A stretch of 17,698 bases of DNA from a virus. Lineage: Duplodnaviria; Heunggongvirae; Uroviricota; Caudoviricetes. The position numbers were made by a program, and so were the translations under genes. Positions 1 to 14,649 of the stretch are shown here, one piece after another; positions within the stretch are counted from its first letter, which is position 1; every line of letters starts with the position of its first letter. The notes beneath the pieces were generated by a model, which worked only from the letters and a program-made list of their open reading frames with translations, ran no database searches and had not been told where the DNA came from. The DNA lies in the IMG/VR virus record IMGVR_UViG_3300000292_000161, one strand, 5' to 3'.

Positions 1-321
1 ATGTTCAGGCTTGTTGTCCTGCGCGCGCGTATTGCTCGTGAAATTGCTGTAACCAATAGTGATGTCCGAAAAAACCTCCGTTCTCACATGAAACAGCCAT
101 GTGCAACTGGTAACTGAATAGACTGGTAGACCGTTCGTTCAGTAAATACCTGATATTTTCGCCAACGAGAAATTGCGTTGGCTGGCAGAGTGCAAATTTG
201 CACGATGACCTAACCCATTGATTTTTTCGAAAACCTACAATGCAGGAAGCCGGATAACACCATTTTTATAGCTCCGATCCCTTCAAAGTGAGGGGGAATT
301 TGCCAAAACAGAGAGAGAGCA

Positions 322-609
322 TTACTGTCTCTGGCAATCTTTATCGCGATAACGCCTGAAGTACCCTCTCGCTTCCTCATCCATACCAAGAGCCGAATGA
401 GTCCGCTTAACTGCCTGTCTTAAATCTCCGAATCTGTCTGTAGTTGCTGGTGGGCGTGCCGCCTTACGGATACATTCAGAGCGTCTGTTTGCTGCATGTT
501 CACGTTCTTTATCGCCATCTGCCAGCATCATGACTTCTGCCCATCGTGCGGCAGCTCTCCGGTATAGCCCTTTTGACTCCAGCTCTTCAGCTTTCCTGTC
601 CCTTATCAT
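322..609 (-). CDS. small basic regulatory protein, tentatively PerC-family-like transcriptional activator
   Basis: 95-aa ORF with ATG at 609 preceded by GAGAGG about 6 nt upstream. N-terminal AEELESKGLYRRAAARW resembles my recollection of PerC-type activators; family assignment is unverified. Confidence 0.5.
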   Translation of the reverse strand: MIRDRKAEELESKGLYRRAAARWAEVMMLADGDKEREHAANRRSECIRKAARPPATTDRFGDLRQAVKRTHSALGMDEEARGYFRRYRDKDCQRQ

Positions 610-645
610 TTCTGCCTCTCAGATTATATAGATAAGCAAAAAGGT

Positions 646-766
646 GTTGGTTCAGTTGGTTCAGTTGGTTTAATTTGTAAAGATCGTTGTTTTTATTGTG
701 TTTTTTCTGAAATGTTGAACCAACATCAACTCATTTTGAACCAACACAGCCCAGCTCTGAACCAAC
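646..766. repeat. iteron array: three tandem direct GTTGGTTCA copies followed by three inverted TGAACCAAC copies at 21-bp phasing
   Basis: Read directly: GTTGGTTCA at 646-654 and 655-663, GTTGGTTTA at 664-672; TGAACCAAC at 716-724, 737-745, 758-766. Lies in the divergent region between the 322..609 and 869..1312 genes. Confidence 0.8.
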
Positions 767-818
767 AACACAGCGATAGCTTTGTGATTGGTCCGTTATT
801 TTCTGGCTGATATTTGAG

Positions 819-851
819 CGTATAACAGTGTTATACAGTGGTATACTGTAT
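819..851. promoter_or_regulatory. operator-like imperfect repeats and palindrome just upstream of the RHH-like gene
   Basis: TATAACAGTG / TTATACAGTG / GTATACTGTAT; ATACAGT-GGTAT-ACTGTAT inverted repeat at 833-851, about 18 nt before the ATG at 869. Confidence 0.35.
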
Positions 852-868
852 GGATATTACTCACTGAT

Positions 869-1312
869 ATGGTCTTTGCAATGAGCAAATCTAATCTGAT
901 CGCGTTCCGCATCCCATCTGAATTGCAGGATGAGTTTAATCGGTCTGTTCTCGCTTCTGGAGGGGATAAAACCTCCTGGCTTGTTGATGCGATTCGCATG
1001 AAGCTGGGACAGCCGGAAAAGTCTATTGATTCACGAATGCTTGGGCTGGTGGAGCGCATGGAAAAAGCCGCTGCGTCGCTTATTGCCGGAAAGCCGAACA
1101 TCCCACCAAAGCCATATAACGAAACGGCAGTTATAAAGATCATTGCCGATACCATCCAACAGGGATTTGATAATGGGCGTGTGATAGCGGAACGGCTCAA
1201 TGAAGCAGGCTATCAAACAAAAGCTGGTAAAGCATGGGATAAAGACATTTACAGCGCGTGGAAGCGTCAGGGAAGCAATGCTGAAAAGTTATCAGTGGCT
1301 CTAAGAATGTAG
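869..1312 (+). CDS. putative ribbon-helix-helix (Arc/CopG-like) DNA-binding protein with C-terminal extension
   Basis: 147-aa ORF; alternative ATG at 881 (MSKSNL). N-terminus NLIAFRIPSELQDEF...SWLVDAIRMKLG fits a beta-strand/helix/helix RHH pattern. No clear SD for either start. Confidence 0.55.
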   Translation: MVFAMSKSNLIAFRIPSELQDEFNRSVLASGGDKTSWLVDAIRMKLGQPEKSIDSRMLGLVERMEKAAASLIAGKPNIPPKPYNETAVIKIIADTIQQGFDNGRVIAERLNEAGYQTKAGKAWDKDIYSAWKRQGSNAEKLSVALRM

Positions 1313-1328
1313 CCCTATATTTTGATTT

Positions 1329-1706
1329 TTAGACGTGCTCGGAGAACAGGTAGCGTGCCATCACTAAAACAATGCCAAAGACTTCAGCGAGGGTTCCCCC
1401 CATAAATAGGTTTATAACGAAATCACTAAAATGGAGCAGTTTTGCTCCAATAAGGACAAAAATCCCATTCATAACTAATAGCTGGCCTATCAGAATGCCG
1501 ATAAACCACCGAGCAAACATTTTTTTCAGTTTTGTGTCTGTTTTTAAATCTTTTGTTTTTGCACGCTGATGGGCTTTGGCTGGATCCTTATCATTTAGAT
1601 GTGTGAGGGTTTTTGCTGATGGAGATGAGCCAGAGGCTGGTTCACCTCTGGCTTGTCTTGCCGCTTGCTTTAGTTTTTCAGATATAGCGTAAGATCTAGA
1701 CGTCAT
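1329..1706 (-). CDS. small membrane protein (polar/basic N-terminus, two C-terminal TM helices)
   Basis: 125-aa ORF; ATG at 1706 lies 3 nt after the TGA of the upstream ImmA-like gene (coupled). Hydrophobic segments FIGILIGQLLVMNGIFVLIGA and GGTLAEVFGIVLVMARYLF. Confidence 0.6.
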   Translation of the reverse strand: MTSRSYAISEKLKQAARQARGEPASGSSPSAKTLTHLNDKDPAKAHQRAKTKDLKTDTKLKKMFARWFIGILIGQLLVMNGIFVLIGAKLLHFSDFVINLFMGGTLAEVFGIVLVMARYLFSEHV

Positions 1707-1709
1707 TAC

Positions 1710-2198
1710 TCATCGAAGCCCTAAATTCTTTAGGCGATAACGTATAGCATCATCGGATACACCAAAATAGGAAGCCATCATTACTGGTGCATATCCTGCA
1801 TTGTTGAGGCGTCGAACCTCTTTTTCTGGCATGAGAAGACATGCTGCAAAGTTATTGGCGAATATTTCTTCGCTGTCTACACCTTGGCTTGCCAGTTTTC
1901 CGCGGTAATCAACAAACTCATATTCAAGTGGCTGACCGTTCTCAGTTCGTTTGACGTAATGCCCTAACTCATGCGCACACGTAAATCGTTTGCGCACGTT
2001 ACTATCATTACGATTGAGTATGATTACTGGATCTTGTTCTGGCTCTTTCAGCAATGCGCCTGAAACATCATCATCAAGCGTGGTTTCAACAACATCCAAC
2101 CCTAACTCATTGGCAATCCATACTGGATCAACCGGGAATTTCCTATCGCCCCAGATATCTTTCAAGAGGGCATGTGCAGATGTATTCGACATGTTCAC
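1710..2198 (-). CDS. ImmA/IrrE-family (DUF955, COG2856) zinc metallopeptidase
   Basis: 162-aa ORF with HEXXH (FTCAHELGHYV) followed by the family-typical ANNFAACLLMP. Strong SD AAAGGAGGTGAAC immediately before the ATG at 2198. Confidence 0.85.
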   Translation of the reverse strand: MNMSNTSAHALLKDIWGDRKFPVDPVWIANELGLDVVETTLDDDVSGALLKEPEQDPVIILNRNDSNVRKRFTCAHELGHYVKRTENGQPLEYEFVDYRGKLASQGVDSEEIFANNFAACLLMPEKEVRRLNNAGYAPVMMASYFGVSDDAIRYRLKNLGLR

Positions 2199-2886
2199 CT
2201 CCTTTGATTATGGTTAAATAGTCGAAATTTTCACCACTTCCCTTGTGGATATATTTACATATAAAAGGTAACTAGTCACTAACCAACACAAATCTTTTTG
2301 AAGACAGATGGGGGGTGTTGAACGGTTTTTAAATGATTTCTTTGATTTTTAACAGCAATAAGGAGCATTTTTAATGAAATTAGACGTTGATAATAACTTT
2401 TTGAGCAATCTTTACATATCATGGTAGCCTTCTATGCTGTTTTTCCAACTAAAAGATTGGCACATTTATCCGCTGGTAGTGGCGTTTTTTCGCCGCCAGC
2501 GCCTCTCTGGTTCCATTCCTTACATCTGTTCAAATTCAGCAACCCTTGCCGCGATCTTGCCGTTATCGAGAAGCTCTTTCGCTTTTCGGTTAATACTATC
2601 GGTCTTCATATTGCCAGCAGCATACGCCATCCGATAATTTCGATGCTACGCGCGCGTACTTGTCGCAAAATATCAGGCAAAGGCCAGATTCAGAAAGTCG
2701 TGATAACCACCAGCACAACATGAGAGGTCATGTAACGCGATTTATCACACCAGATACATGTGATTGGTGTACCCGCATAAAACATCGTCATAGCGCGTCC
2801 TGTGCGCATATACGCCGATAATCAACACATCACCACCACTCTGTCTCGTGTAGAGAACAGTTTCATGGTATCCCCCGCCATCGTGT

Positions 2887-2949
2887 GCGTACTGGTCGGA
2901 CGTGGTTGCAAAATTTTTGCAACTGATACCCCTCGCGCGCGTACTGGTC
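2887..2949. repeat. two direct GCGTACTGGTC 11-mers flanking a perfect 19-bp palindrome
   Basis: 11-mers at 2887-2897 and 2939-2949; palindrome GTTGCAAAA-T-TTTTGCAAC at 2905-2923. Related (CG)4-containing copies at 2647-2664 and 3013-3027. Confidence 0.6.
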
Positions 2950-3142
2950 ACGAAATTGGTGTTTTGCTGTGGCAGTGATATCAGAAAAATCTTCCTGTTT
3001 CACATAAAGCGGATATGCGCGTACTGTAACGGCCCCATCAACGGGGAGCGGATTTGAAATCCCGACCCAAGCTATGTACCAAATGCCATGTCTTGGATAT
3101 ATGATGATTGCCATTCTAAACAAAGCTAAAGGGAGGGTTGGT

Positions 3143-3518: not shown

Positions 3519-5636
3519 CTAGTCATTATCTGGATCATTAGATAGCCAAGTAATGATGCCCAGTCTGGCGATGGTCCGTTTTTCCTGTTCAGGAAGAGAG
3601 TTAAAAAAACTCTTCCATTGAGGGGAGCGCCTGATACGTGAATCAACAATGTGCCCAGGCGCTTTTCCGTGTAGATTTTTTACTGCGCTCTGGAAGGCTG
3701 GCGAGGCAATTAATTTATCCGCAGCATCAGCCGCCCCTGCTCCACCAGCTAATCGAGCTTTACTCGCCAATCTTGCTCCAATATCAGCCCCAGCAATGGC
3801 TCCAAGCGATCCAAAATGAGCGCCTACCATCGTGCCTATTTTTTGAATGTGTTTTGCTGCTAGTTCGTATGGAGCTGTTACCCGATTAAATCTGTTTACA
3901 AACTCATTCAGCTTACCAGTAGATATTTCATGCGCTTTAGCATTTTTTATTGCTCTGGCAACTTTGTATACATCATATAGTCCGCTCATTGTTTCTTTTG
4001 GCAAATGTTCAGCCAAAGTCTTTAGCTGTCCACTGTGTTGCAAGTTTTGCCACCAATCTGCAAAGCCAGATGGATTAAAGTCGGCCCCACGCTTCCCAGA
4101 GGAAAGCATATCTCTTAATGCTGTTCCTACTAGCTCCCTTCGCAATGTTCTTGATGGAGTATTTTGCATAATCTCACGAAACCCTCTCGCATCACCTTTT
4201 GCCATAGATTGAAGAGAATTCGTTACTTTATACGCTATATCCCCATTAAGTGTTTTCCCGCGAAGATTTACCATTTGCCTTTCTAAGTTTTTTCTCATAG
4301 CTACAAGGCGTTGTGCGACTTCGAAATCTCGCAAGTATCCAGTATTGGATAAGACAGATTTTTGGTCTTCAGCTAAAGCTCCATATAGTCTTGATAGCGC
4401 TTCTTTATCAGCATCTTTGTATGGCCCCTGCTTTTTATTTAGGGCATCACCAACTAAACGCCTTTGCCTGTTTAAATTTGCATACGTTAGGATGCTATCT
4501 GGGCCGGGGTTTATTGCTGTAAAAACTCGCTTTTCTATTGGGTCAAGATTATCCCACCCTCCTAAATCATCAGCGATTTTTTCCAGCATAGTGCTTGTGT
4601 TATTTGCTTCGACTTTTGTTCTTGGTGATAGAGCGGAATCAACACGTTTATATAACTGATCACTACGGTTTTTTAGTGCTTCCATTCTACTATTTATCTG
4701 ATAAATATATTTTTCGCTCATAGCTAACGCATCTGGCGCACCAGCAACATCATCGATTATCTTGTCAGCACTAGAGGCTAATTCGCTTATTGCTTTATCT
4801 TCTTGAGCTTTTAACGCTGATCCTGTCCGTGACTTTAGGGCTTGCTCTACAGCTTGGTATTGCTCATTTCCTGATAAATGAGAAGGAAGAACTGAATCAA
4901 CATGAAGCCTATTTGCAGCCTCAACAATTTCTTTCTGAGGTTTTAGATCTAGCCCTTCAAGCGAAGAGGCAAGATTTGGGTTGCCTTGTGCAGATAACTT
5001 ACGAATTTTCTCTTCGGCAGGAGTAATCCCCTCAATATCTGGAATCGAAGAAACATTCTTCTTGGTTAATTTCCCAGCTATTTTATTAATTGCAGGGCCA
5101 GCAAGTTCGGCTACAGGGCCAGCCACAGCGCCAATAGCAGCGCCGGAAGCAACATCGCTATTTGTTCCATTGGCTACAATAGCCCCTTCTCCAGCACCAA
5201 GCCCTACGGCGGCAGCCAGTCTTGCCGCCCCTTTGGGAACCTGAGAAATAATCCCACCACCACTAACAAATGGCGCTGCTTGTCCAACGAACTCACCAAC
5301 ATCTTGTGCGGTTGATGGTTTTGCCGCTAACTTCTGCTGTAGAGACTGAATTGCGGCTTGCTCTTCTGGTGTCATATCCTGAAACAGGCCAACACCTTTA
5401 CCAACATCCATCAATCCACTGAGAACGCCATACATAAAACGGTCGAAACCGTTAGCATTATTAACAACATTTTCCTGTCTGGAATTTTCCTCTGGTGAAA
5501 CCAAAGGTGATTGCTGCTGTTCTGGTTGGGCATCAAGCACAAAACCATCAGGAAGCTGTGAACTATCAGGAAACTGTGAGTTATCAGGTTGTTCATCGAG
5601 CACAAAACCTTCCGGTAAGATTACATTTGCTGCCAT
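3519..5636 (-). CDS. hypothetical 705-aa protein, repeat-rich N-terminus, Gly/Ala-rich low-complexity tracts, C-terminal glycine-zipper-like segment
   Basis: ATG at 5636 with AGGAA 7 nt upstream; overlaps the upstream gene by 16 nt. N-terminal repeats LPEGFVLDEQP / LPDGFVLDAQP; C-terminal GAHFGSLGAIAGADIGARLA; no Walker or nuclease motifs seen. Confidence 0.8.
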   Translation of the reverse strand: MAANVILPEGFVLDEQPDNSQFPDSSQLPDGFVLDAQPEQQQSPLVSPEENSRQENVVNNANGFDRFMYGVLSGLMDVGKGVGLFQDMTPEEQAAIQSLQQKLAAKPSTAQDVGEFVGQAAPFVSGGGIISQVPKGAARLAAAVGLGAGEGAIVANGTNSDVASGAAIGAVAGPVAELAGPAINKIAGKLTKKNVSSIPDIEGITPAEEKIRKLSAQGNPNLASSLEGLDLKPQKEIVEAANRLHVDSVLPSHLSGNEQYQAVEQALKSRTGSALKAQEDKAISELASSADKIIDDVAGAPDALAMSEKYIYQINSRMEALKNRSDQLYKRVDSALSPRTKVEANNTSTMLEKIADDLGGWDNLDPIEKRVFTAINPGPDSILTYANLNRQRRLVGDALNKKQGPYKDADKEALSRLYGALAEDQKSVLSNTGYLRDFEVAQRLVAMRKNLERQMVNLRGKTLNGDIAYKVTNSLQSMAKGDARGFREIMQNTPSRTLRRELVGTALRDMLSSGKRGADFNPSGFADWWQNLQHSGQLKTLAEHLPKETMSGLYDVYKVARAIKNAKAHEISTGKLNEFVNRFNRVTAPYELAAKHIQKIGTMVGAHFGSLGAIAGADIGARLASKARLAGGAGAADAADKLIASPAFQSAVKNLHGKAPGHIVDSRIRRSPQWKSFFNSLPEQEKRTIARLGIITWLSNDPDND

Positions 5637-6964
5637 TTTCCGTTCCTGTAAATGATTTTCTGACCAGTTTTAGGGTTGGTTGCCGTTGCGCCTTCTGATA
5701 TTCCTCCGGTTGCCGCTTTTGCCTGTCCAGTGCCAGCCTGTGATGTAGGCTGCCCGGAAACATCGTCAAATAGCTTCGCTTTCCTTCTTTCAAGGCTTTT
5801 TCTTAGCCCCTGAGGAATAGTTTCTCCATATGTATCGAGATACTCGTCAACCTGCTGGTTAAACTGCTGCCCCATAGCATTGGCGTTGATTTTTGCGGCG
5901 TTAACAATGTTATCCTTTGCCTCCTGCGACAGGCCGTTTCCAGCATTAAGCTGGTCTATGTATCCTTTGATTTGTCCCCATATGCCATCAGACCGCATTA
6001 CCTGAACCTGTTCGCCTTCACGAACGACTGACTGCGGGTCAAGAGATTTCATGTAGTTGAAGATAATCCCAAGTTGGGCAGCGCCAGTATTTACCTTGCT
6101 AAGGGCTTGCAGAGAGTTTGCCGCCGCTCTGACAGAGTTATAATTTTTGCCAAAATTGGTAATGTCAGAATTTAATCCCTTAATTAAGTCTGCTGACGGC
6201 TTACCTTTTTGCCCCAGCTCCATTAGCTTCAATCCCATCTCATCTGAGTGAATTTGTGCTCGCTGAGCCCTGTCTAGTTGAGCGTTCTGGATATTTGCCC
6301 ATCCTCTCGCGTTCTCCATGTCAGCCTGACGCATACTTTCATCCAGTCGCCCTTGCTCAAGTCGACGACCTTCCATTTGATCTTTGATATCGAAATACTT
6401 CTCATGACCGAGAGAAAACAGCGCCAGATTACCTGCGAAATGCTGGAAGCCCTGCGGGTCATTAACCTGCATTTCAGCAATAGTTTCTGGAGGGATACCT
6501 AAACGACGCATCTCCTGCTCATTATCCATCATGAACCTGCCAAATGCGCCCTGACCAAGCGATGAGGCTACCTGTGCTTTGAGCGCCAGATTGCCATAAT
6601 CATCCCTTTGAGCATCATCGACATAACTCATCCCTTTACGGACTTCCTCAAACTCTTCTGGGAATGCTGTAATAAGATTACGCATCTGCTCCCTGTCACC
6701 GGACGCATAAGCATCTGCATAACCTTTCTGGAATGCCGCTTTACGTTCCTGCTGTTGCTGCTGCTTATAAATGTCAGCAACTCCAGCCAGACCACGAAGA
6801 CCTGTCAGAGCAACGTTATTTGCACCTGAGCGAGCCAGTTCATTGTTTTCGCGGATCAGACCAAGCGTTGCGTTAATGTCGCTTGCCTTTGGCGCATTCT
6901 CATTTTGCGCACCGATGCCAGCCAGAAAACCACCAGAATTAATACCCTGTTGCCACGTAGCCAT
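5621..6964 (-). CDS. hypothetical 447-451-aa Gln-rich, probably coiled-coil protein
   Basis: ATG at 6964, 4 nt after the TAA of the 57-aa gene (in-frame GTG at 6976 is the alternative start). Contains poly-Q KQQQQQERK and many Q/E/R heptad-like stretches; no catalytic motif recognised. Confidence 0.8.
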   Translation of the reverse strand: MATWQQGINSGGFLAGIGAQNENAPKASDINATLGLIRENNELARSGANNVALTGLRGLAGVADIYKQQQQQERKAAFQKGYADAYASGDREQMRNLITAFPEEFEEVRKGMSYVDDAQRDDYGNLALKAQVASSLGQGAFGRFMMDNEQEMRRLGIPPETIAEMQVNDPQGFQHFAGNLALFSLGHEKYFDIKDQMEGRRLEQGRLDESMRQADMENARGWANIQNAQLDRAQRAQIHSDEMGLKLMELGQKGKPSADLIKGLNSDITNFGKNYNSVRAAANSLQALSKVNTGAAQLGIIFNYMKSLDPQSVVREGEQVQVMRSDGIWGQIKGYIDQLNAGNGLSQEAKDNIVNAAKINANAMGQQFNQQVDEYLDTYGETIPQGLRKSLERRKAKLFDDVSGQPTSQAGTGQAKAATGGISEGATATNPKTGQKIIYRNGKWQQM

Positions 6965-6968
6965 AAAT

Positions 6969-7142
6969 TTACCCACGTCCAGTTAAAGTGTAAGCCAGCG
7001 CCTTATCCATTAATCCCCGAGCAATTTCGTGGATCGTTGGCGCAACTCCTACCTCTGATTTTTTACGCTGCTCCTCCTGAATTTTCTTTATCGCTTCCAT
7101 TTGCTTCTCACTTATCAATACTGGCTTTACTGAAATAGCCAT
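6969..7142 (-). CDS. 57-aa putative DNA-binding regulator (possibly ribbon-helix-helix), first gene of the cargo operon
   Basis: The 100-aa ORF trimmed to the ATG at 7142, preceded by AAGGGGGG. Sequence MAISVKPVLISEKQMEAIKKIQEE..TIHEIARGLMDKAL; function inferred from size and position only. Confidence 0.5.
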   Translation of the reverse strand: MAISVKPVLISEKQMEAIKKIQEEQRKKSEVGVAPTIHEIARGLMDKALAYTLTGRG

Positions 7143-7236
7143 AACGCCCCCCTTAGAACTGTATAAAACAACAGTCATTATAGTTTCATAAAACGCAACA
7201 TTCATCATTGTGATTGCAAAATATGAAACAAATAGC
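7143..7236 (-). promoter_or_regulatory. candidate promoter of the 57/451/705 operon
   Basis: Perfect -10 TATAAT on the minus strand (plus-strand ATTATA at 7177-7182), about 35 nt upstream of the ATG at 7142. The -35 is poor; sits just downstream of an intrinsic terminator. Confidence 0.35.
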
Positions 7237-7271
7237 ACAAAAAAATGCCACCGTTCAGTAGCTGGTGGCAT
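7237..7271 (-). terminator. rho-independent terminator for leftward transcription
   Basis: Minus-strand RNA would form AUGCCACC-(11-nt loop)-GGUGGCAU followed by a U7 tract (plus-strand A7 at 7238-7244). Confidence 0.6.
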
Positions 7272-7636
7272 CGTTCTGTATGTCAGGTTTTGACAGTTTT
7301 TTTATGGACTCTAAAAACTATATTTATGGAGTCGCATTACTCTTCACGGCAGGCGCTTTCCAGTTCTGCCCTTGCTTCTGGCTCCATTGGTAATTTGATT
7401 CGCGATCAGCTATGCGGATGGTTTGCTGAACAGGCATAACAACATCTCAGAGGCTATTTTTTGAACTACGAAAATTTCGTAGTGCTCACCTTCAAAAACG
7501 TCACGCCCTTGTACACTGGATTTTACAAAAGTCTCGTAAAACTCTTTGCTGTTCTGGGCTATGTGCCAAACCGCAGCGAATACCTCCGTCTGCCAGATGA
7601 GCAAAACATACCTTATAAAGAAAATCGCTGTTTTTG

Positions 7637-7740
7637 CTGTACCACCTGTACCACCATGTCACAAACCCTTGTGTGGCGCGGCCTGCAGGTGGTACAGGTG
7701 GGTAAAAATGACCTCTCCCCACCTGTACAGACCTGTACCA
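7637..7740. repeat. iteron cluster 2 (GGTGGTACAGGT family, both orientations), crr-like
   Basis: CTGTACCACCTGTACCACC at 7637-7655, GGTGGTACAGGTGGGT at 7688-7703, CACCTGTACAGACCTGTACCA at 7719-7740. Confidence 0.75.
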
Positions 7741-7745
7741 TTTAT

Positions 7746-8483
7746 TTAATTTTTACCCATAGCAGCACATAATCCCTTTTTTGAAATATTGAAAAATGCG
7801 TTCATTCTTCCCGCTGGCTTAACCTTGTAGCCGCTTGCCACCATCGCCGCAATAAATGCTCCGTTGGGGATATAGTGCGGGTGATCACTGTGCTGGTGGT
7901 TTATCTGGTTATATCGCTCCACTTCATGCTTCAACGTGTCAGATGTGGGGTTATCCTGCGGGAAGCTCTCAATCTGGGCATTACTCATCCCGTTGTCTCT
8001 GATCCATCTCAGGCAGCTTTTCGCCGATACGATAAATGACGGGTTATCAAGCGGGTTTTCCCAGTCCGCATTCCGGTTGTGGAGCGCCAGTCCGTCAAGG
8101 TTAAATTGTGGGTATTCAGCGGTAATTACTGTCACTGCGTGGCGGATTTCAGTCTCGTCACAACATGGCTCATCTCCCACACCAGCAGGGTAATAATCTG
8201 AACCACCGGGACTGATACAGCGTTTACCACTGAAAGGCCATTGCTTCGCCATTTCGGGTGTTGAGTGATTACCGTCGCTCCGTTCGCGCTGTGCCTCTGT
8301 CCACTGGCTGGCATATTCAGTAAATGAAACTCTTTGCCCCTGGCGCATCCAGTGCGCAATCATAATTAAAGTGCGTTCCAGACTTTGGATGTCGCCAGCA
8401 TTCCCGCACTGTGTAGCGAAACTTTTTAATTCTTCGCGCTCCGTTCTGGTCATTCCCTGCAGTATGCAATAGTTATTGTTCAT
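7746..8483 (-). CDS. hypothetical 245-aa protein
   Basis: ATG at 8483 with SD AGAGAGGT; overlaps the 3-prime end of the upstream 76-aa gene by 11 nt. No motif recognised. Confidence 0.75.
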   Translation of the reverse strand: MNNNYCILQGMTRTEREELKSFATQCGNAGDIQSLERTLIMIAHWMRQGQRVSFTEYASQWTEAQRERSDGNHSTPEMAKQWPFSGKRCISPGGSDYYPAGVGDEPCCDETEIRHAVTVITAEYPQFNLDGLALHNRNADWENPLDNPSFIVSAKSCLRWIRDNGMSNAQIESFPQDNPTSDTLKHEVERYNQINHQHSDHPHYIPNGAFIAAMVASGYKVKPAGRMNAFFNISKKGLCAAMGKN

Positions 8484-8703
8484 GTTTTACCTCTCTGATT
8501 TCTGCTGCCATATCTGTTGGCTCTATACAGCCGTCCCGACTTGCCACGCAGGGAATAATGATTTCAACGGTATCGCCGTCAATACACATTTCAACATTCG
8601 CCCATGCCGCAATGGGTAGCCAGTCTGAACGCCCCTCAAACCGTAGCTGCCAGCCAGAGGAAGAAGCTAACTGGCGCACTTTGTAAAATGGTGTGCTCAT
8701 CAT
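8473..8703 (-). CDS. hypothetical 76-aa protein
   Basis: ATG at 8703 (or 8700) with SD GAGAGGG about 8 nt upstream. Confidence 0.6.
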   Translation of the reverse strand: MMSTPFYKVRQLASSSGWQLRFEGRSDWLPIAAWANVEMCIDGDTVEIIIPCVASRDGCIEPTDMAAEIREVKHEQ

Positions 8704-8747
8704 TGGTTGTTCCCTCTCAGCCAGCCAGAAGAAATGCGTTTGTTAAT

Positions 8748-8850
8748 GGTATAGGTGGTACAGGTCTGGTATAGGTAAGATATTGACCTGTACCACTATA
8801 ACGCATTGTTTTTAATGCTGAATTAGCAAAGTGGTATAGGTGGTACAGGT
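8748..8850. repeat. iteron cluster 1, candidate replication origin immediately 3-prime of the primase gene
   Basis: Perfect 18-mer GGTATAGGTGGTACAGGT at 8748-8765 and 8833-8850, partial copy at 8768-8776, inverted copy ACCTGTACCACTATA at 8786-8800. Confidence 0.75.
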
Positions 8851-8879
8851 AAAAACGATCTTCTTGTAAAAAGACTATA

Positions 8880-11307
8880 TTAAAAAACATCATAACCCCC
8901 CATACCGATCAGACGGGCAAACGCAGCCTGTAGAACTCCGACCTCTGGTAGTTCGTAGAACACGCCATTCCCTCGGTCTGGTCTTCCATGCTTCACCAGC
9001 CCCATTTGTGCAAGTGATTTACCCAGTAGTGATCTGGCAGCTGGTTCTTTAAGCTTTTCCCCACGCTCAAGCGACCACGCTACAAACCGACTAACCATAT
9101 CCTTTGCAAACAAACGGACTTCGCCATTAAACGGAGGTTCATTGATTAGCTCGCCATAAAGAAACAATTCAACGCCAGACAGCCCCAGCAAGATTTCTTC
9201 ACGTAAGGCATCGGTCTGTGGCGCTCGTTGAGGGTCAAAACCTGAGAGATCCACCCCTTTAAGATGCCAAAGCAACTTTGCGGCACCGCCATCATTAAGC
9301 CAACTGTACAGCCGATCAAAATACTCCCGGCTCTGTGCTTTTTCAGGAGATGGCTCAAGCACGAGATAGCGGCGCTCTCTTATCCCTGCCTGTAATACCT
9401 GTGTGCTGTTACTGGCAAATATCAACCGGGCAAAATTCGGCATTGGTTCAGCATCAATTCCCTTGCGCTCAAGGTTAAACGTCGGTTCGCTAATAATCGC
9501 TTTAAGTCTGTCAGCTTCAGACGGCTTGTGGATCGTCACTTCGTCAGCAAATACCAGTAGCTTGTTAGCAAGTATTGAATTGAAGCGCCCTGAAATATGT
9601 CCCGCCCCGTTAATGTGGGCGGCGTACTGCCCCAGTATTTGCAGCAGCGGTTTAACCGTTGTGCCTTTCCCTGTGCCCGGGACAGATTTCATCACGATTG
9701 CCACGGACGGTTTTTCATCAGGCTTTTGGATAATGTGCGCCATCCACTGGATAAGATATTGGTATGCCTCTTCATTACCGGCACAGACAACCTGCAACAG
9801 GTGATTAAGGTATACCGTGCAATCTCCTTCAATTGGTTCCAGTGCCAGCCCCTCATACAGATTAAAAACATCGTCAGGGCATTTGTCTGGTACTGGATAA
9901 AATCCTACGCCTCCTGGCTTGTAGTTCTTCCCACTCCATGACAGCCACGCCGATCCCGCCAGCTTTCTGGCGACTCTCGGTTTATGATGAAAATAATGCT
10001 GAAATTGTGATAAATCCTCGAAAACGTGCGATACACCGCCGGTTTGAGAAGGCTTTAGCGACACCACCTTGTGTTTCCCGCCGATGGTGACATGCGTAAA
10101 CGTCCGGTTGATTTCTTCGAGGACAGCAATTTCATCATCGCTTAACACCTCGCCAGAACTGATCTCATTCAGCGCCCCGACTGACTGTTTGTGATTTTTC
10201 ACCTGCGCCCCTTTCCCCCGTGGCTGGTACATCGAATCTTTAAATGCTGCTGTGGCTGCCGCCAGCCCGTGTTGTTGGTGATAGTCGTTCCAGTCGGCTT
10301 TATAGTCAGTCGGTGGCAGAGACACCCAGCCAGCTACGGAAATAGCGGCCCTCTCTGCGGCATCTTTCCCCGTGTTGATCCCTCCACTTTCGGAGTTTCC
10401 TTGCTGGTGATCGTTATCTGCGGCAATGATGATTTGTGCCTGTGGATATGTTCTGCGCATGACTTCCGCTACTGGCAACAGGTTGCCAGCGTCGATTGCT
10501 GCCACTGTCATTGCGTCAGGGCGAATTAAATGGCACGACAGGGCGGTAGCCACCCCCTCAGCAATTATGNNNNNNNNNNNNNNNNNNNNNNNNNNNNNNN
10601 NNNNNNNNNNNNNNNNNNNNNNNNNNNNNNNNNNNNNNNNNNNNNNNNNNNNNNNNNNNNNNCTGTGCGTTTATGGCGTGATATGCCCCTCGCTTTGCTG
10701 AACCTGTCAGGAGTCTTTTTTCACCATGTGAGGTAATAGTCTGTGCTGCTGTAACTGCGCCGGATTTATCCACCAGCGCCAGCAACAGAGATCCATCGGG
10801 CAACACAGGGAATGTAAAATCACCTACCCCTTTCGCAACCAGATAATCAGATTTGCCGTTTACAGCCTTTCTGCGCATGTCATCAAACTGACGGGAAAAC
10901 GTATCCCGTCTTTGTTGTTCGTCCTTCTCTGCCCTTTTCAGGCGCTCCTGTTCGCGTCGCTGGCGCTCGGTTTCCAGTTGTTCCCGTTTCTGGCTGGTGG
11001 CTTCTGGTGTTTCCGTTGTCCGGTAATCAATACCCAGAACATCAGCGGCAAGCAGCGCCGCCTCTGTTGTGTCGCAGTTATTTACGCGTTTAATTAAATC
11101 CAGCCCATCACCAGCGCCGCACTGATTACAGATGAAGCTACCGCGCCCGTTGTCATCGAACCGGAATCGGTCTTTGCCCCCACATGCAGGGCAGGGAGCA
11201 TGACGGCGCGGAGAGTCAGGGACATTTATGTTCAGGCAGCCCAGCACATGAGGCCAGTTGTTTTCAGACGCACTGATAACCTGACGGATAAGATCAATGT
11301 TTCGCAT
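8880..11307 (-). CDS. P4-type DNA primase/helicase (Zn-ribbon + TOPRIM + D5-like P-loop NTPase), interrupted by an assembly gap
   Basis: N-terminal piece (10558..11307) has CPACGG...CNQCG zinc ribbon; C-terminal piece (8880..10553) has IIIAADND (TOPRIM-like) and P-loop VPGTGKGTT. ATG at 11307 with SD ACGGGGG. Frame across the gap is uninformative. Confidence 0.85.
10570..10662. other. assembly gap (93 N) inside the primase gene
   Basis: Run of n characters read directly from the sequence. Confidence 0.99.
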
Positions 11308-13823: not shown

Positions 13824-14649
13824 TGAGCGCCTCCAGACGCTTGGCGAGCCAGCGTTGCGACAGGTGGGTGAGTTCTCCTTTGCGCTGCTCATATTCCATG
13901 CCCATATCAATTAACGTGATATTGGTGCTTTCGAGATATGAGAGGTGCTCAAGCTGTTCTGCGTTCATATGGTCGCGAGGTTCGCCAGAATAGCCATTTA
14001 TCCGCGCCCACTGCTTAGCAGTTAGCCCACCAAGAACGATACGAGAAATCATATTGCTCTCGTTTGTGTAGTGGTGTTGCTGCGTCGTTTTCCCCTGCTC
14101 GGCACGGGCCATGTTCAGCGCATCGCACATTGGCTTAAAGTTGTTTGCGGCACTGATACGGGCTTTTAGCTGGCGACGATAGCGGGCGGCGATTTCAGGC
14201 ACGGTACGCTGTAATTCTTCCTCGCACTGGATGAAATAACGACGGATAGCGCGACCCTGATCATTGCGTTCGATCATTGCCAGTTCTTTCGCCATTCCGA
14301 CACTTAACAGATAGTCTTTGCCGGGTCTGCCAGAGTGCTTAATCTTGCTGTAAGCCGCGCCATTCGGGCTTTTCCCCAAATTTGGGGAAATTGTTTTATG
14401 GACTGAGTAATCGTGCCCAATGGTGAAGTCATATTCAGAGATGCGATCAGTGATCCATGTAGAGAAGTCTTTTCCCACGCCCAACGCTTTGTGTAACGCT
14501 TTTGCGCTAACAATATTGGTTTCACGCCCACCTATATGACCAGAAATAACCGGGACAATTGCGGCAAATTCATTACCGTTAATTGTGCCCAGAGAGGCGT
14601 TCAGATGAGGGGCGGCCTCAGAAATTAATCTGCTTTTTTCGATGTTCAT
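13816..14649 (-). CDS. phage antirepressor-like protein (Ant/KilA-type DNA-binding domain), tentative
   Basis: 277-aa ORF, ATG at 14649 with SD GGAGA. N-terminal region IVSAKALHKALGVGKDFSTWITDRI resembles antirepressor/Bro-type domains; assignment is by pattern only. Confidence 0.7.
   Translation of the reverse strand: MNIEKSRLISEAAPHLNASLGTINGNEFAAIVPVISGHIGGRETNIVSAKALHKALGVGKDFSTWITDRISEYDFTIGHDYSVHKTISPNLGKSPNGAAYSKIKHSGRPGKDYLLSVGMAKELAMIERNDQGRAIRRYFIQCEEELQRTVPEIAARYRRQLKARISAANNFKPMCDALNMARAEQGKTTQQHHYTNESNMISRIVLGGLTAKQWARINGYSGEPRDHMNAEQLEHLSYLESTNITLIDMGMEYEQRKGELTHLSQRWLAKRLEALNV

Follow-up and report, generated by a model that had tools for sequence, protein, structure and literature searches.

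We have analysed a cluster of short repeats in a 17,698-nucleotide stretch of DNA filed as IMG/VR virus record IMGVR_UViG_3300000292_000161 (hereafter the window, meaning the whole of that stretch), which is a phage satellite island of the phage-inducible chromosomal island (PICI) type. Judged by analogy with known satellite origins, the cluster is probably an origin-type iteron unit of the kind that belongs to the DUF927-type allele of the PICI primase and replication initiator (Pri-Rep, hereafter Rep), and it would persist in this island as an orphan half-origin that is not cognate to the island's own Rep. Islands encoding a DUF927 Rep carry two such units in inverted orientation, i.e. unit A, beside the rep gene and directly after its stop codon, and unit B, farther off; the array in the window matches unit B. 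The island itself occupies 17.5 kb between dinD and yicC of Escherichia coli, and it is read as a PICI because an integrase, a small AlpA-like helix-turn-helix (HTH) protein and a Pri-Rep are encoded between these two genes, together with the accessory gene perC. Elements of this kind have been described as Gram-negative PICIs, with yicC-dinD among their attachment sites and perC among their accessory genes (Fillol-Salom et al. 2018, PMC6092414).

The iteron array and its relatives

The repeat cluster is genuine, by direct reading of positions 601-900 as well as by repeat-finding tools. Its elements, together with one solitary match that had previously been counted with them, are the following:

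621-643, on the outer (tandem) side of the unit: conserved box TATA(G/T)ATAAGCAAAAAGG, kept in unit B of nine genera
646-672, - strand (TGAACCAAC on the - strand): three tandem 9-bp iterons with a period of 9 bp
673-715: A+T-rich spacer of 43 bp, 76.7% A+T vs 53.6% in the whole window
716-724, 737-745 and 758-766, + strand: three spaced TGAACCAAC iterons, exactly 21 bp from start to start, i.e. two helical turns
2281-2290, + strand: solitary AACCAACACA, judged to be a chance partial match outside the system

Two exact copies of GTTGGTTCA, the reverse complement of TGAACCAAC, stand at 646-654 and 655-663, and they are followed at 664-672 by a degenerate copy with one mismatch (GTTGGTTTA, or TAAACCAAC read on the - strand); apart from this mismatch, the preliminary description of three tandem copies followed by three inverted copies 21 bp apart was borne out. 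With at most one mismatch allowed, the iteron motif occurs 12 times in the window vs 4.08 times expected, a count reached in 0 of 200 shuffles, and the cluster is not due to chance. It is the single TGAACCAAC cluster of the window, and its true extent is about 621-767 rather than the 646-2290 given previously, a span that took in a further copy 1.5 kb away in the promoter of the ImmA operon. The sequence at that place, ctAACCAACACA (2281-2290), stands alone and is without the T and the G found before the core in 218 and 220, respectively, of 226 iterons from 30 enterobacterial loci. Chance alone would give 0.68 10-mers per window that match any iteron with its flank (P = 0.40 for at least one), and three copies of the core AACCAAC stand outside the array, with about two occurrences expected in the whole window; the copy at 2281 fits chance.

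The spacer at 673-715 contains the conserved motifs ATTTGTAAAGA and TTGTTTT, which recur in the Rep-proximal unit of E. coli 042, and 18 of its 43 columns are invariant over nine genera; we regard it as a putative DNA-unwinding element. The DNA separating the spaced iterons (716-766) is, on the other hand, unconserved. In the nine-genus alignment 41 of the 54 iteron columns are invariant vs 2 of the 24 inter-iteron spacer columns, a contrast that is in part due to ascertainment, as several of the aligned loci were retrieved with an 18-mer of two tandem iterons. The conservation of the iterons and of their spacing, while the DNA between them diverges, is counted here as selection on the iterons. 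The box at 621-643 is kept in Salmonella although no leftward gene follows it there, and it is therefore taken to belong to the unit rather than to be specific to the perC promoter.

A sensitive BLAST search of 5,426 complete E. coli genomes with positions 610-868 found matches at 975 places in 563 genomes, and many of these matches break off precisely where the array ends (query position 137 or 158). Genomes with the window-type island have a single array-like place each, which makes it less likely that they hold a cognate origin at another site. In the weakest relatives (L005 and L006), in satellites of PICI-like and capsid-forming PICI-like kinds, the homologous stretch lies directly 3' of the stop codon of a DUF927-type primase-helicase gene, and TGAACCAAC is present 10-12 times around two A+T-rich stretches. 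The motif search in related genomes that had been proposed as a check was then positive: the repeat and its layout are conserved across genera of the Enterobacterales, commonly directly 3' of a DUF927 rep gene. More specifically, a scan of one genome per species with the exact 18-mer of two tandem iterons placed the array directly after a DUF927 rep gene in Erwinia, Rahnella, Pectobacterium, Citrobacter, Pantoea, Leclercia, Apirhabdus, Rosenbergiella, Serratia and Cedecea. In a second context that recurs in the Enterobacterales, homologues of a gene for a ribbon-helix-helix (RHH)-like protein, the gene that is also the right-hand neighbour of the array in the window, are preceded by a unit of three tandem iterons, an A+T-rich spacer and three spaced iterons. 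Many 18-mer matches outside the Enterobacterales were plain tandem 9-mers and were discarded as chance.

The two-unit organisation can be followed in the island of E. coli 042, which occupies the same chromosomal site as the window island and encodes a DUF927 Rep (WP_001244106.1). In its unit A an A+T-rich spacer separates the tandem iterons, at 13910-13936, from the spaced ones at 13980, 13991 and 14012; its unit B is inverted, lies 7.4 kb from unit A and adjoins perC, and the spaced ends of the two units face each other. The DNA between the spaced iterons of the 042 array has diverged from that of the window, while the iterons and their 21+21 phasing are intact; the same 21+21 spacing is found in Salmonella, Cedecea, Rosenbergiella, Pantoea and Erwinia. 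In both E. coli 042 and M10 the array adjoins perC, and its other neighbour is not the RHH-like gene. The facing inverted topology is shared by Salmonella, where the units are 6.6 kb apart, and by Serratia fonticola, where they are 2.1 kb apart when the P22 gp7/gp20/gp16-like ejection module is missing between them and 9 kb apart when it is present. Cedecea has one Rep-proximal and one distal unit, and in L005, L006, Citrobacter, Erwinia amylovora and others units A and B are adjacent as a composite origin after rep. Where the units are split, their measured separation is ~2-9 kb, with up to ~14 kb estimated indirectly between blocks, and cargo genes lie in between. Adjacent or split, the two units always turn their spaced ends towards each other. 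In the minimal units sampled, the iteron spacing is 11+21 in unit A and 21+21 in unit B. The window array is assigned to unit B because its layout, spacing, flanking box and orientation match that unit. The number of tandem iterons in unit B of E. coli islands varies from two (L131, 11537-11554) through three in most to four (L132, 11537-11572), and in L129 (12975-13035) a deletion has brought the second spaced iteron right up to the perC leader.

Several further loci were noted in the course of these searches. The island end of S. fonticola occurs with or without a module of DUF2824, gp7, gp20 and gp16 genes between the units (13010-18015 of L145, which has it). In Pantoea coffeiphila (4429-6391 of L046) unit B and the RHH-like gene are tandemly duplicated with a period of 1251 bp. 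Outside the Enterobacterales, Pelosinus propionicus (Negativicutes; 960-2568 of L019) has nine exact copies of TGAACCAAC around very A+T-rich DNA after a DUF927-like gene, the product of which is only ~25% identical to the E. coli Rep; this arrangement suggests either deep conservation or transfer of the same iteron specificity beyond the Enterobacterales. A unit B nearly identical to the enterobacterial one, including the motif TCTTTACAAATT, was found in a metagenome-assembled genome labelled Bacillota (3380-3520 of L015), which is probably a misbinned enterobacterial contig. In E. coli ABWA45 (19700-29400 of L005) the DUF927 satellite is inserted amid the late (head and tail) genes of a prophage, and resembles helper-embedded PICIs (PMC10111431).

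Rep alleles and their iterons

The island's own Rep is of another allele than the one that TGAACCAAC accompanies, and a second family of iterons stands beside its gene:

8880-11231, - strand: the island's own Pri-Rep, with zinc ribbon, Toprim and DUF5906 helicase domains
8748-8850: GGTAYAGGT iterons at 8748 (+), 8757 (+), 8768 (+), 8786 (-), 8833 (+) and 8842 (+), flanking an A+T-rich stretch ~30 bp after the rep stop codon
7644-7739: second GGTAYAGGT cluster, at 7644 (-), 7691 (+), 7721 (-) and 7731 (-), ~1 kb from the first, with two small open reading frames (ORFs) between them

A masked run of 93 N at 10570-10662 lies inside the rep gene and shifts its apparent frame in the window; the gene is intact, with 783 aa, in the identical RefSeq island (L001), and the DUF5906 Rep has the accession WP_001332287.1. 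Residues 1-343 of the window Rep are 73% identical to a DUF927-type Rep, and the remainder is unrelated. TGAACCAAC follows rep in all eight islands with a DUF927 Rep (L127, L128, L132, L134 and L144-L147), which were ascertained independently of their proximal iterons, i.e. three E. coli islands through unit B, and a Salmonella, three Serratia and an Erwinia island through the RHH-like protein; it is found near rep in none of the four islands with a DUF5906 Rep. Fisher's exact test, calculated by hand, gives P ~0.002 for 8/8 vs 0/4, a value that overstates independence since the islands are related. Conversely, the GGTAYAGGT arrangement follows rep in all four DUF5906 islands (the window, L129, L131 and L133) and is absent from the DUF927 islands. 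The EcCICFT073 island has a third Rep allele, with the iterons CTGTCTACC/GGTAGAYA. The Rep of L006 is missing the shared primase N-terminus and retains TGAACCAAC, while the DUF5906 Rep has the shared N-terminus and other iterons; taken together, these two comparisons indicate that the iteron specificity follows the helicase and C-terminal part of the protein. On these grounds the cluster at 8748-8850 is likely to be the cognate origin unit of the DUF5906 Rep, and the GGTAYAGGT clusters are probably the real origin of the island.

Mapped onto the 042 island by BLAST, the window shows homology from 22 to 767, where it stops exactly at the last iteron, then at 6994-7551 and again from 10210. The interval 7552-10210 of the window holds the two GGTAYAGGT clusters, the two ORFs and the Rep C-terminus in place of unit A and the DUF927 C-terminus of 042, and unit B is unreplaced. 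Among complete E. coli genomes, 374 have the DUF927 C-terminus and 130 the DUF5906 C-terminus.

These observations can be set against the traits of PICI origins as described in PMC6092414, where origin function was demonstrated experimentally for EcCICFT073 with a temperature-sensitive plasmid, pKO3-blue. The window array has two iteron sets around an A+T-rich stretch. It does not lie immediately 3' of pri-rep, a position that unit A has in the eight DUF927 islands and in the loci ascertained with the 18-mer; instead, it is ~8.1 kb from the rep stop codon (8880), at the far end of the island. Nor are its iterons cognate to the Rep encoded with it, since TGAACCAAC tracks DUF927 and the window Rep is DUF5906. 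The TGAACCAAC unit is thus mismatched with the island's own Rep, because this Rep has a different C-terminus (DUF5906) and GGTAYAGGT iterons of its own. A plasmid-like origin had been named among the possibilities in the preliminary description, and that suggestion comes close: the array has the sequence and layout of a PICI origin unit, of the kind that goes with a DUF927-type Pri-Rep, which the island does not encode.

The mechanism we propose is as follows. A DUF927 Rep would bind the TGAACCAAC iterons on both sides of the A+T-rich spacer and open it, by analogy with the origins of PICIs and of Staphylococcus aureus pathogenicity islands (SaPIs) and with ori and crr of phage P4. In the window island, a cassette at 7552 to ~10210 has replaced unit A together with the DUF927 C-terminus and left unit B behind, most likely as a non-cognate, orphaned half of an origin. 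The island's own DUF5906 Rep presumably does not fire the TGAACCAAC unit, and unit B may be either a relic carried along with the perC end of the cargo or a site that the DUF927 Rep of another satellite could use in trans.

Alternative readings of the array

Several points weigh against the reading of the array as an orphan half-origin. Its origin function would be taken over by analogy from EcCICFT073, which has a different Rep allele, from SaPIs and from P4. The non-cognate unit is still largely intact in islands with the DUF5906 Rep (four islands were scored, and ~130 E. coli genomes carry that Rep), a degenerate iteron copy is found in a DUF927 island as well, and the RHH-like gene adjoins unit B in many genera, which could reflect a functional link. 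Furthermore, many of the loci outside E. coli were found with the iteron-derived 18-mer, which has inflated the apparent conservation of the iterons. As for the integrity of unit B, among the DUF5906 islands all six iterons are perfect in L133, the window has five and one degenerate copy, L131 has five, and L129 has lost four of six; the DUF927 islands show one degraded copy (L128) and one island with a gained copy. Four closely related islands set against four are too few, and too recent, for any relaxation of selection to be visible.

Going one step beyond a mere relic, the inverted origin halves of DUF927 PICIs might bracket a hot spot for cargo, and the unit B left over after the swap might act as a handle in trans, an extension that we consider possible but doubtful. 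A co-resident DUF927 satellite would then replicate the island, or would be titrated or handcuffed by it, and the consequence would be cross-replication or incompatibility between satellites. The cargo between the origin halves differs by element, and includes P22-like ejection-protein genes, toxin genes, ImmA, abortive-infection (Abi) genes and the RHH-like gene.

The other readings assign the array to its neighbours or to the island as it now stands, and bear on the following features:

322-609, - strand: perC (Pfam PerC, E = 2.6e-33), a known accessory gene of E. coli PICIs
818-846, + strand: promoter of the RHH-like gene, with a direct repeat GTATAAC-n4-GTTATAC and an extended -10 element TGGTATACT
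881-1312, + strand: RHH-like gene, 143 aa, with a start conserved across genera (ATGAGCAAATC) and identical to the RefSeq start

According to one of these readings, which was also the thrust of the preliminary description, the array is an operator for the RHH-like 143-aa protein and/or PerC, and controls the promoters of perC and of the RHH-like gene, as well as the ImmA operon through the copy at 2281. perC and the RHH-like gene do diverge from a 271-bp intergenic region that contains the array, unit B stands 70-190 bp upstream of RHH-like homologues in at least eight genera, and RHH proteins commonly bind short repeats. Nevertheless, we judge an operator very unlikely, as identical iterons follow DUF927 rep genes with neither regulator nearby, and as either of the two, array and RHH-like gene, can occur in the absence of the other. 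The array is found without the gene in E. coli 042 and M10 and in every Rep-proximal copy; conversely, the gene is found with no array within 20 kb in one Klebsiella locus (L141), with none adjacent in Erwinia amylovora (L147), and with the array 1 kb off and another gene intervening in a second Klebsiella locus (L139). In all three of these loci the counterpart of the repeat at 818-846 of the window stays with the gene. This repeat is a different one from the iterons, overlies the gene's own extended -10 element, and varies with the clade of the protein: E. coli, Salmonella, Klebsiella and Serratia have GTATAAC/GTTATAC ahead of TGGTATACT, and Pantoea, Erwinia, Rosenbergiella and Cedecea have TGTCTTAC-n2-TGTCTTAC ahead of TGnTAAAAT. 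The operator of an RHH repressor is a repeat that stays with the repressor gene and overlaps its promoter; the repeat at 818-846 has both traits and may be regarded as a candidate auto-operator, separate from the iterons, and the array does not stay with the gene. As regards PerC, its gene adjoins unit B in E. coli, but in Salmonella it lies downstream of unit A instead, and for most of the loci screened outside E. coli a tblastn search returned no perC next to the array. With the copy at 2281 attributable to chance, nothing ties the ImmA operon to the array, and the idea of one regulator coordinating two promoters is not supported. As far as sequence comparison can tell, the array tracks the DUF927 Rep and neither of the small proteins.

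It is also improbable, though less so, that the array is active in cis despite the swap of Rep, either as a second origin, as a crr-like enhancer that serves the DUF5906 Rep or some factor of the host, or as a Rep-responsive element of the perC or RHH promoter. Such activity would be in keeping with the largely intact unit in most of the DUF5906 islands sampled, a type of island present in ~130 genomes, with the conserved flanking box and A+T-rich motifs, and with a TATAAT on the perC strand (623-628) 17 bp from the first tandem iteron. However, GGTAYAGGT and TGAACCAAC are dissimilar, in the DUF5906 islands TGAACCAAC is missing near rep and their own iteron forms two clusters, L129 retains perC and the RHH-like gene after the loss of four of its six iterons, and a consensus scan of 610-868 found no sigma-70 promoter. 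The preliminary description had also mentioned a partition site. In plasmid R1, the phased repeats of parC are bound by the RHH protein ParR, and the two phased repeat sets beside an RHH-like gene in the window bear a superficial likeness to that centromere. R1 parC/ParR is treated in PMC2241845. Yet a plasmid-type centromere is scarcely credible here: RefSeq annotates no gene of the ParA, ParM or ParB type in the identical island, no ATPase of the ParA/ParM type turned up among the 17 ORFs scanned against Pfam and PHROG, the repeats follow the Rep allele and not the RHH-like gene, and PICIs have no plasmid state and no segregation genes (PMC6092414). Two further candidates were set aside. Arm-type sites of the integrase were rejected, as the array is 0.6-2.7 kb from the island end with variable genes intervening, and a pac or cos site was considered and found no support, no search aimed at it having been made.

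The RHH-like protein, which has the accession WP_024186145.1, belongs to a family with at least 371 homologues in the Enterobacterales. The 147-aa ORF noted in the preliminary description does correspond to this gene, but that length followed from an ORF start at 869; the conserved start is probably the ATG at 881, which gives 143 aa. An AlphaFold2 (AF2) model built from a 25-sequence alignment (predicted local distance difference test, pLDDT, 72) shows an N-terminal beta-alpha-alpha region and a confidently folded C-terminal domain, and the likeness of the N-terminal region to P22 Arc and RHH antitoxins is weak and local, at E > 1. This model gave no significant fold match in the PDB, and sequence and profile searches of the PDB returned nothing; Pfam gave no match and PHROGs one weak match of unknown function. 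A single-sequence AF2 model of the 147-aa ORF had a pLDDT of 40.

Relation to known systems and island context

PICI origins, Rep alleles and the carriage of perC are already known. The array is like the origins of PICIs and SaPIs, the latter reportedly described by Ubeda et al., in that short iterons form two sets around an A+T-rich stretch, the unit lies immediately 3' of pri-rep in cognate islands, the iteron family varies with the Rep allele, and the type of element, perC and the yicC-dinD site are the same. It is unlike them in that the window unit stands ~8 kb from rep and is mismatched with the island's Rep allele, and in that cognate DUF927 islands have two inverted units which kilobases of cargo may separate. 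In phage P4 the alpha primase-helicase binds two iteron clusters, ori and crr, of which the distal one is needed in cis for replication and can act from afar whichever way round it stands. The DUF927 islands likewise combine a primase-helicase initiator with two clusters of the same iteron several kb apart, as TGAACCAAC shows in 042, Salmonella, Serratia and Cedecea; in contrast to P4, the units are adjacent in some relatives, and the window retains only the distal TGAACCAAC cluster, although its GGTAYAGGT iterons again form two clusters. The type I iteron of P4, which we take to be TGTTCACC, has no sequence relationship to TGAACCAAC. P4 is discussed alongside PICIs in PMC6092414.

A parallel to the swap is offered by the PICI-like elements (PLEs) of Vibrio. 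In these satellites the DNA-binding part of the initiator and its cognate origin swap as one cassette, which yields alleles of different specificity on a shared backbone. The Rep C-terminus and the GGTAYAGGT clusters were likewise exchanged together in the window island; the initiator family is another one, however, and here the swap has left a second, putative origin unit of the old specificity elsewhere. Exchange of the RepA/ori module in PLEs is treated in PMC8263062 and PMC7145576. The RHH-like gene invites a different comparison, with Arc/Mnt of the P22 immI region, as the N-terminus of the 143-aa protein is weakly Arc-like in the predicted model and short repeats overlie its own promoter at 818-846; the comparison is limited by a fold match at E > 1, and the candidate operator is the promoter repeat, not the TGAACCAAC array.

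In the PICI literature searched (PICI with DUF927, PICI with iterons) no split or second origin was described, the published iterons of the four E. coli Pri-Rep alleles in Figure 2a of PMC6092414 not having been compared, and in the same literature no description was found of cargo between the units or of a non-cognate unit persisting after a swap of the Rep/origin cassette. The supplement of PMC6092414 holds no iteron sequences, and a literature search on the iteron strings gave unrelated papers only. If the reading of the array as an orphan half-origin is correct, the repeats would be a record of the evolution of a satellite replicon, not a new regulatory circuit. The specificity domain of Rep and the origin would move jointly as a cassette, and the origin of one PICI lineage would consist of two inverted units between which cargo accumulates, including the virulence-linked perC and defence-like genes. 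A non-cognate origin unit would then persist beside perC in ~130 sequenced E. coli genomes, which would provide a testable case of possible cross-talk between co-resident satellites, and the iteron family set against the Rep allele would serve as a simple sequence marker for typing PICI replicons. For annotation, the case warns that phased repeats in a divergent promoter region are not to be assumed to be the operator of the neighbouring small regulators.

As to the island as a whole, positions 200-2500 are 100% identical to NZ_CP147608.1 and to many other clinical isolates. Strains PA45B and SF-166 are among those with a window-type island. Besides the tyrosine integrase, the AlpA-like HTH protein and the zinc-ribbon-Toprim-DUF5906 primase-helicase, the island encodes an AntA/B-type protein, an Ash-family protein, P22-like ejection proteins, an ImmA peptidase and PerC. 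The yicC-dinD attachment core of PICIs, GAGCAGATTCAA, was not found in the window at up to one mismatch; in L001 a copy with one mismatch lies just past the integrase end of the island, inside the adjacent yicC gene. Megablast of positions 1-3000 against phage records gave no match, and the whole window matched such records solely within the ejection-protein genes. These genes, at 3519-6976, give a PICI-type satellite homologues of the P22 ejection proteins (an Inj_translocase/gp20-like protein and a gp16-like protein of 705 aa). Finally, a 23-nt direct repeat, CGCGCGCGTAYTKGTCRCGAAAT, is present on the + strand at 22-44, 2649-2671 and 2934-2956, with zero copies expected in shuffles, and its first two copies enclose the cargo block made up of perC, the array, the RHH-like gene and ImmA. 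In Serratia fonticola (L144-L146, ~9790-9900), copies similar to CGCGCGCGTAYTKGTCRCGAAAT stand in the interval from unit B to the RHH-gene promoter, and these repeats may be sites of cargo exchange or of regulation.

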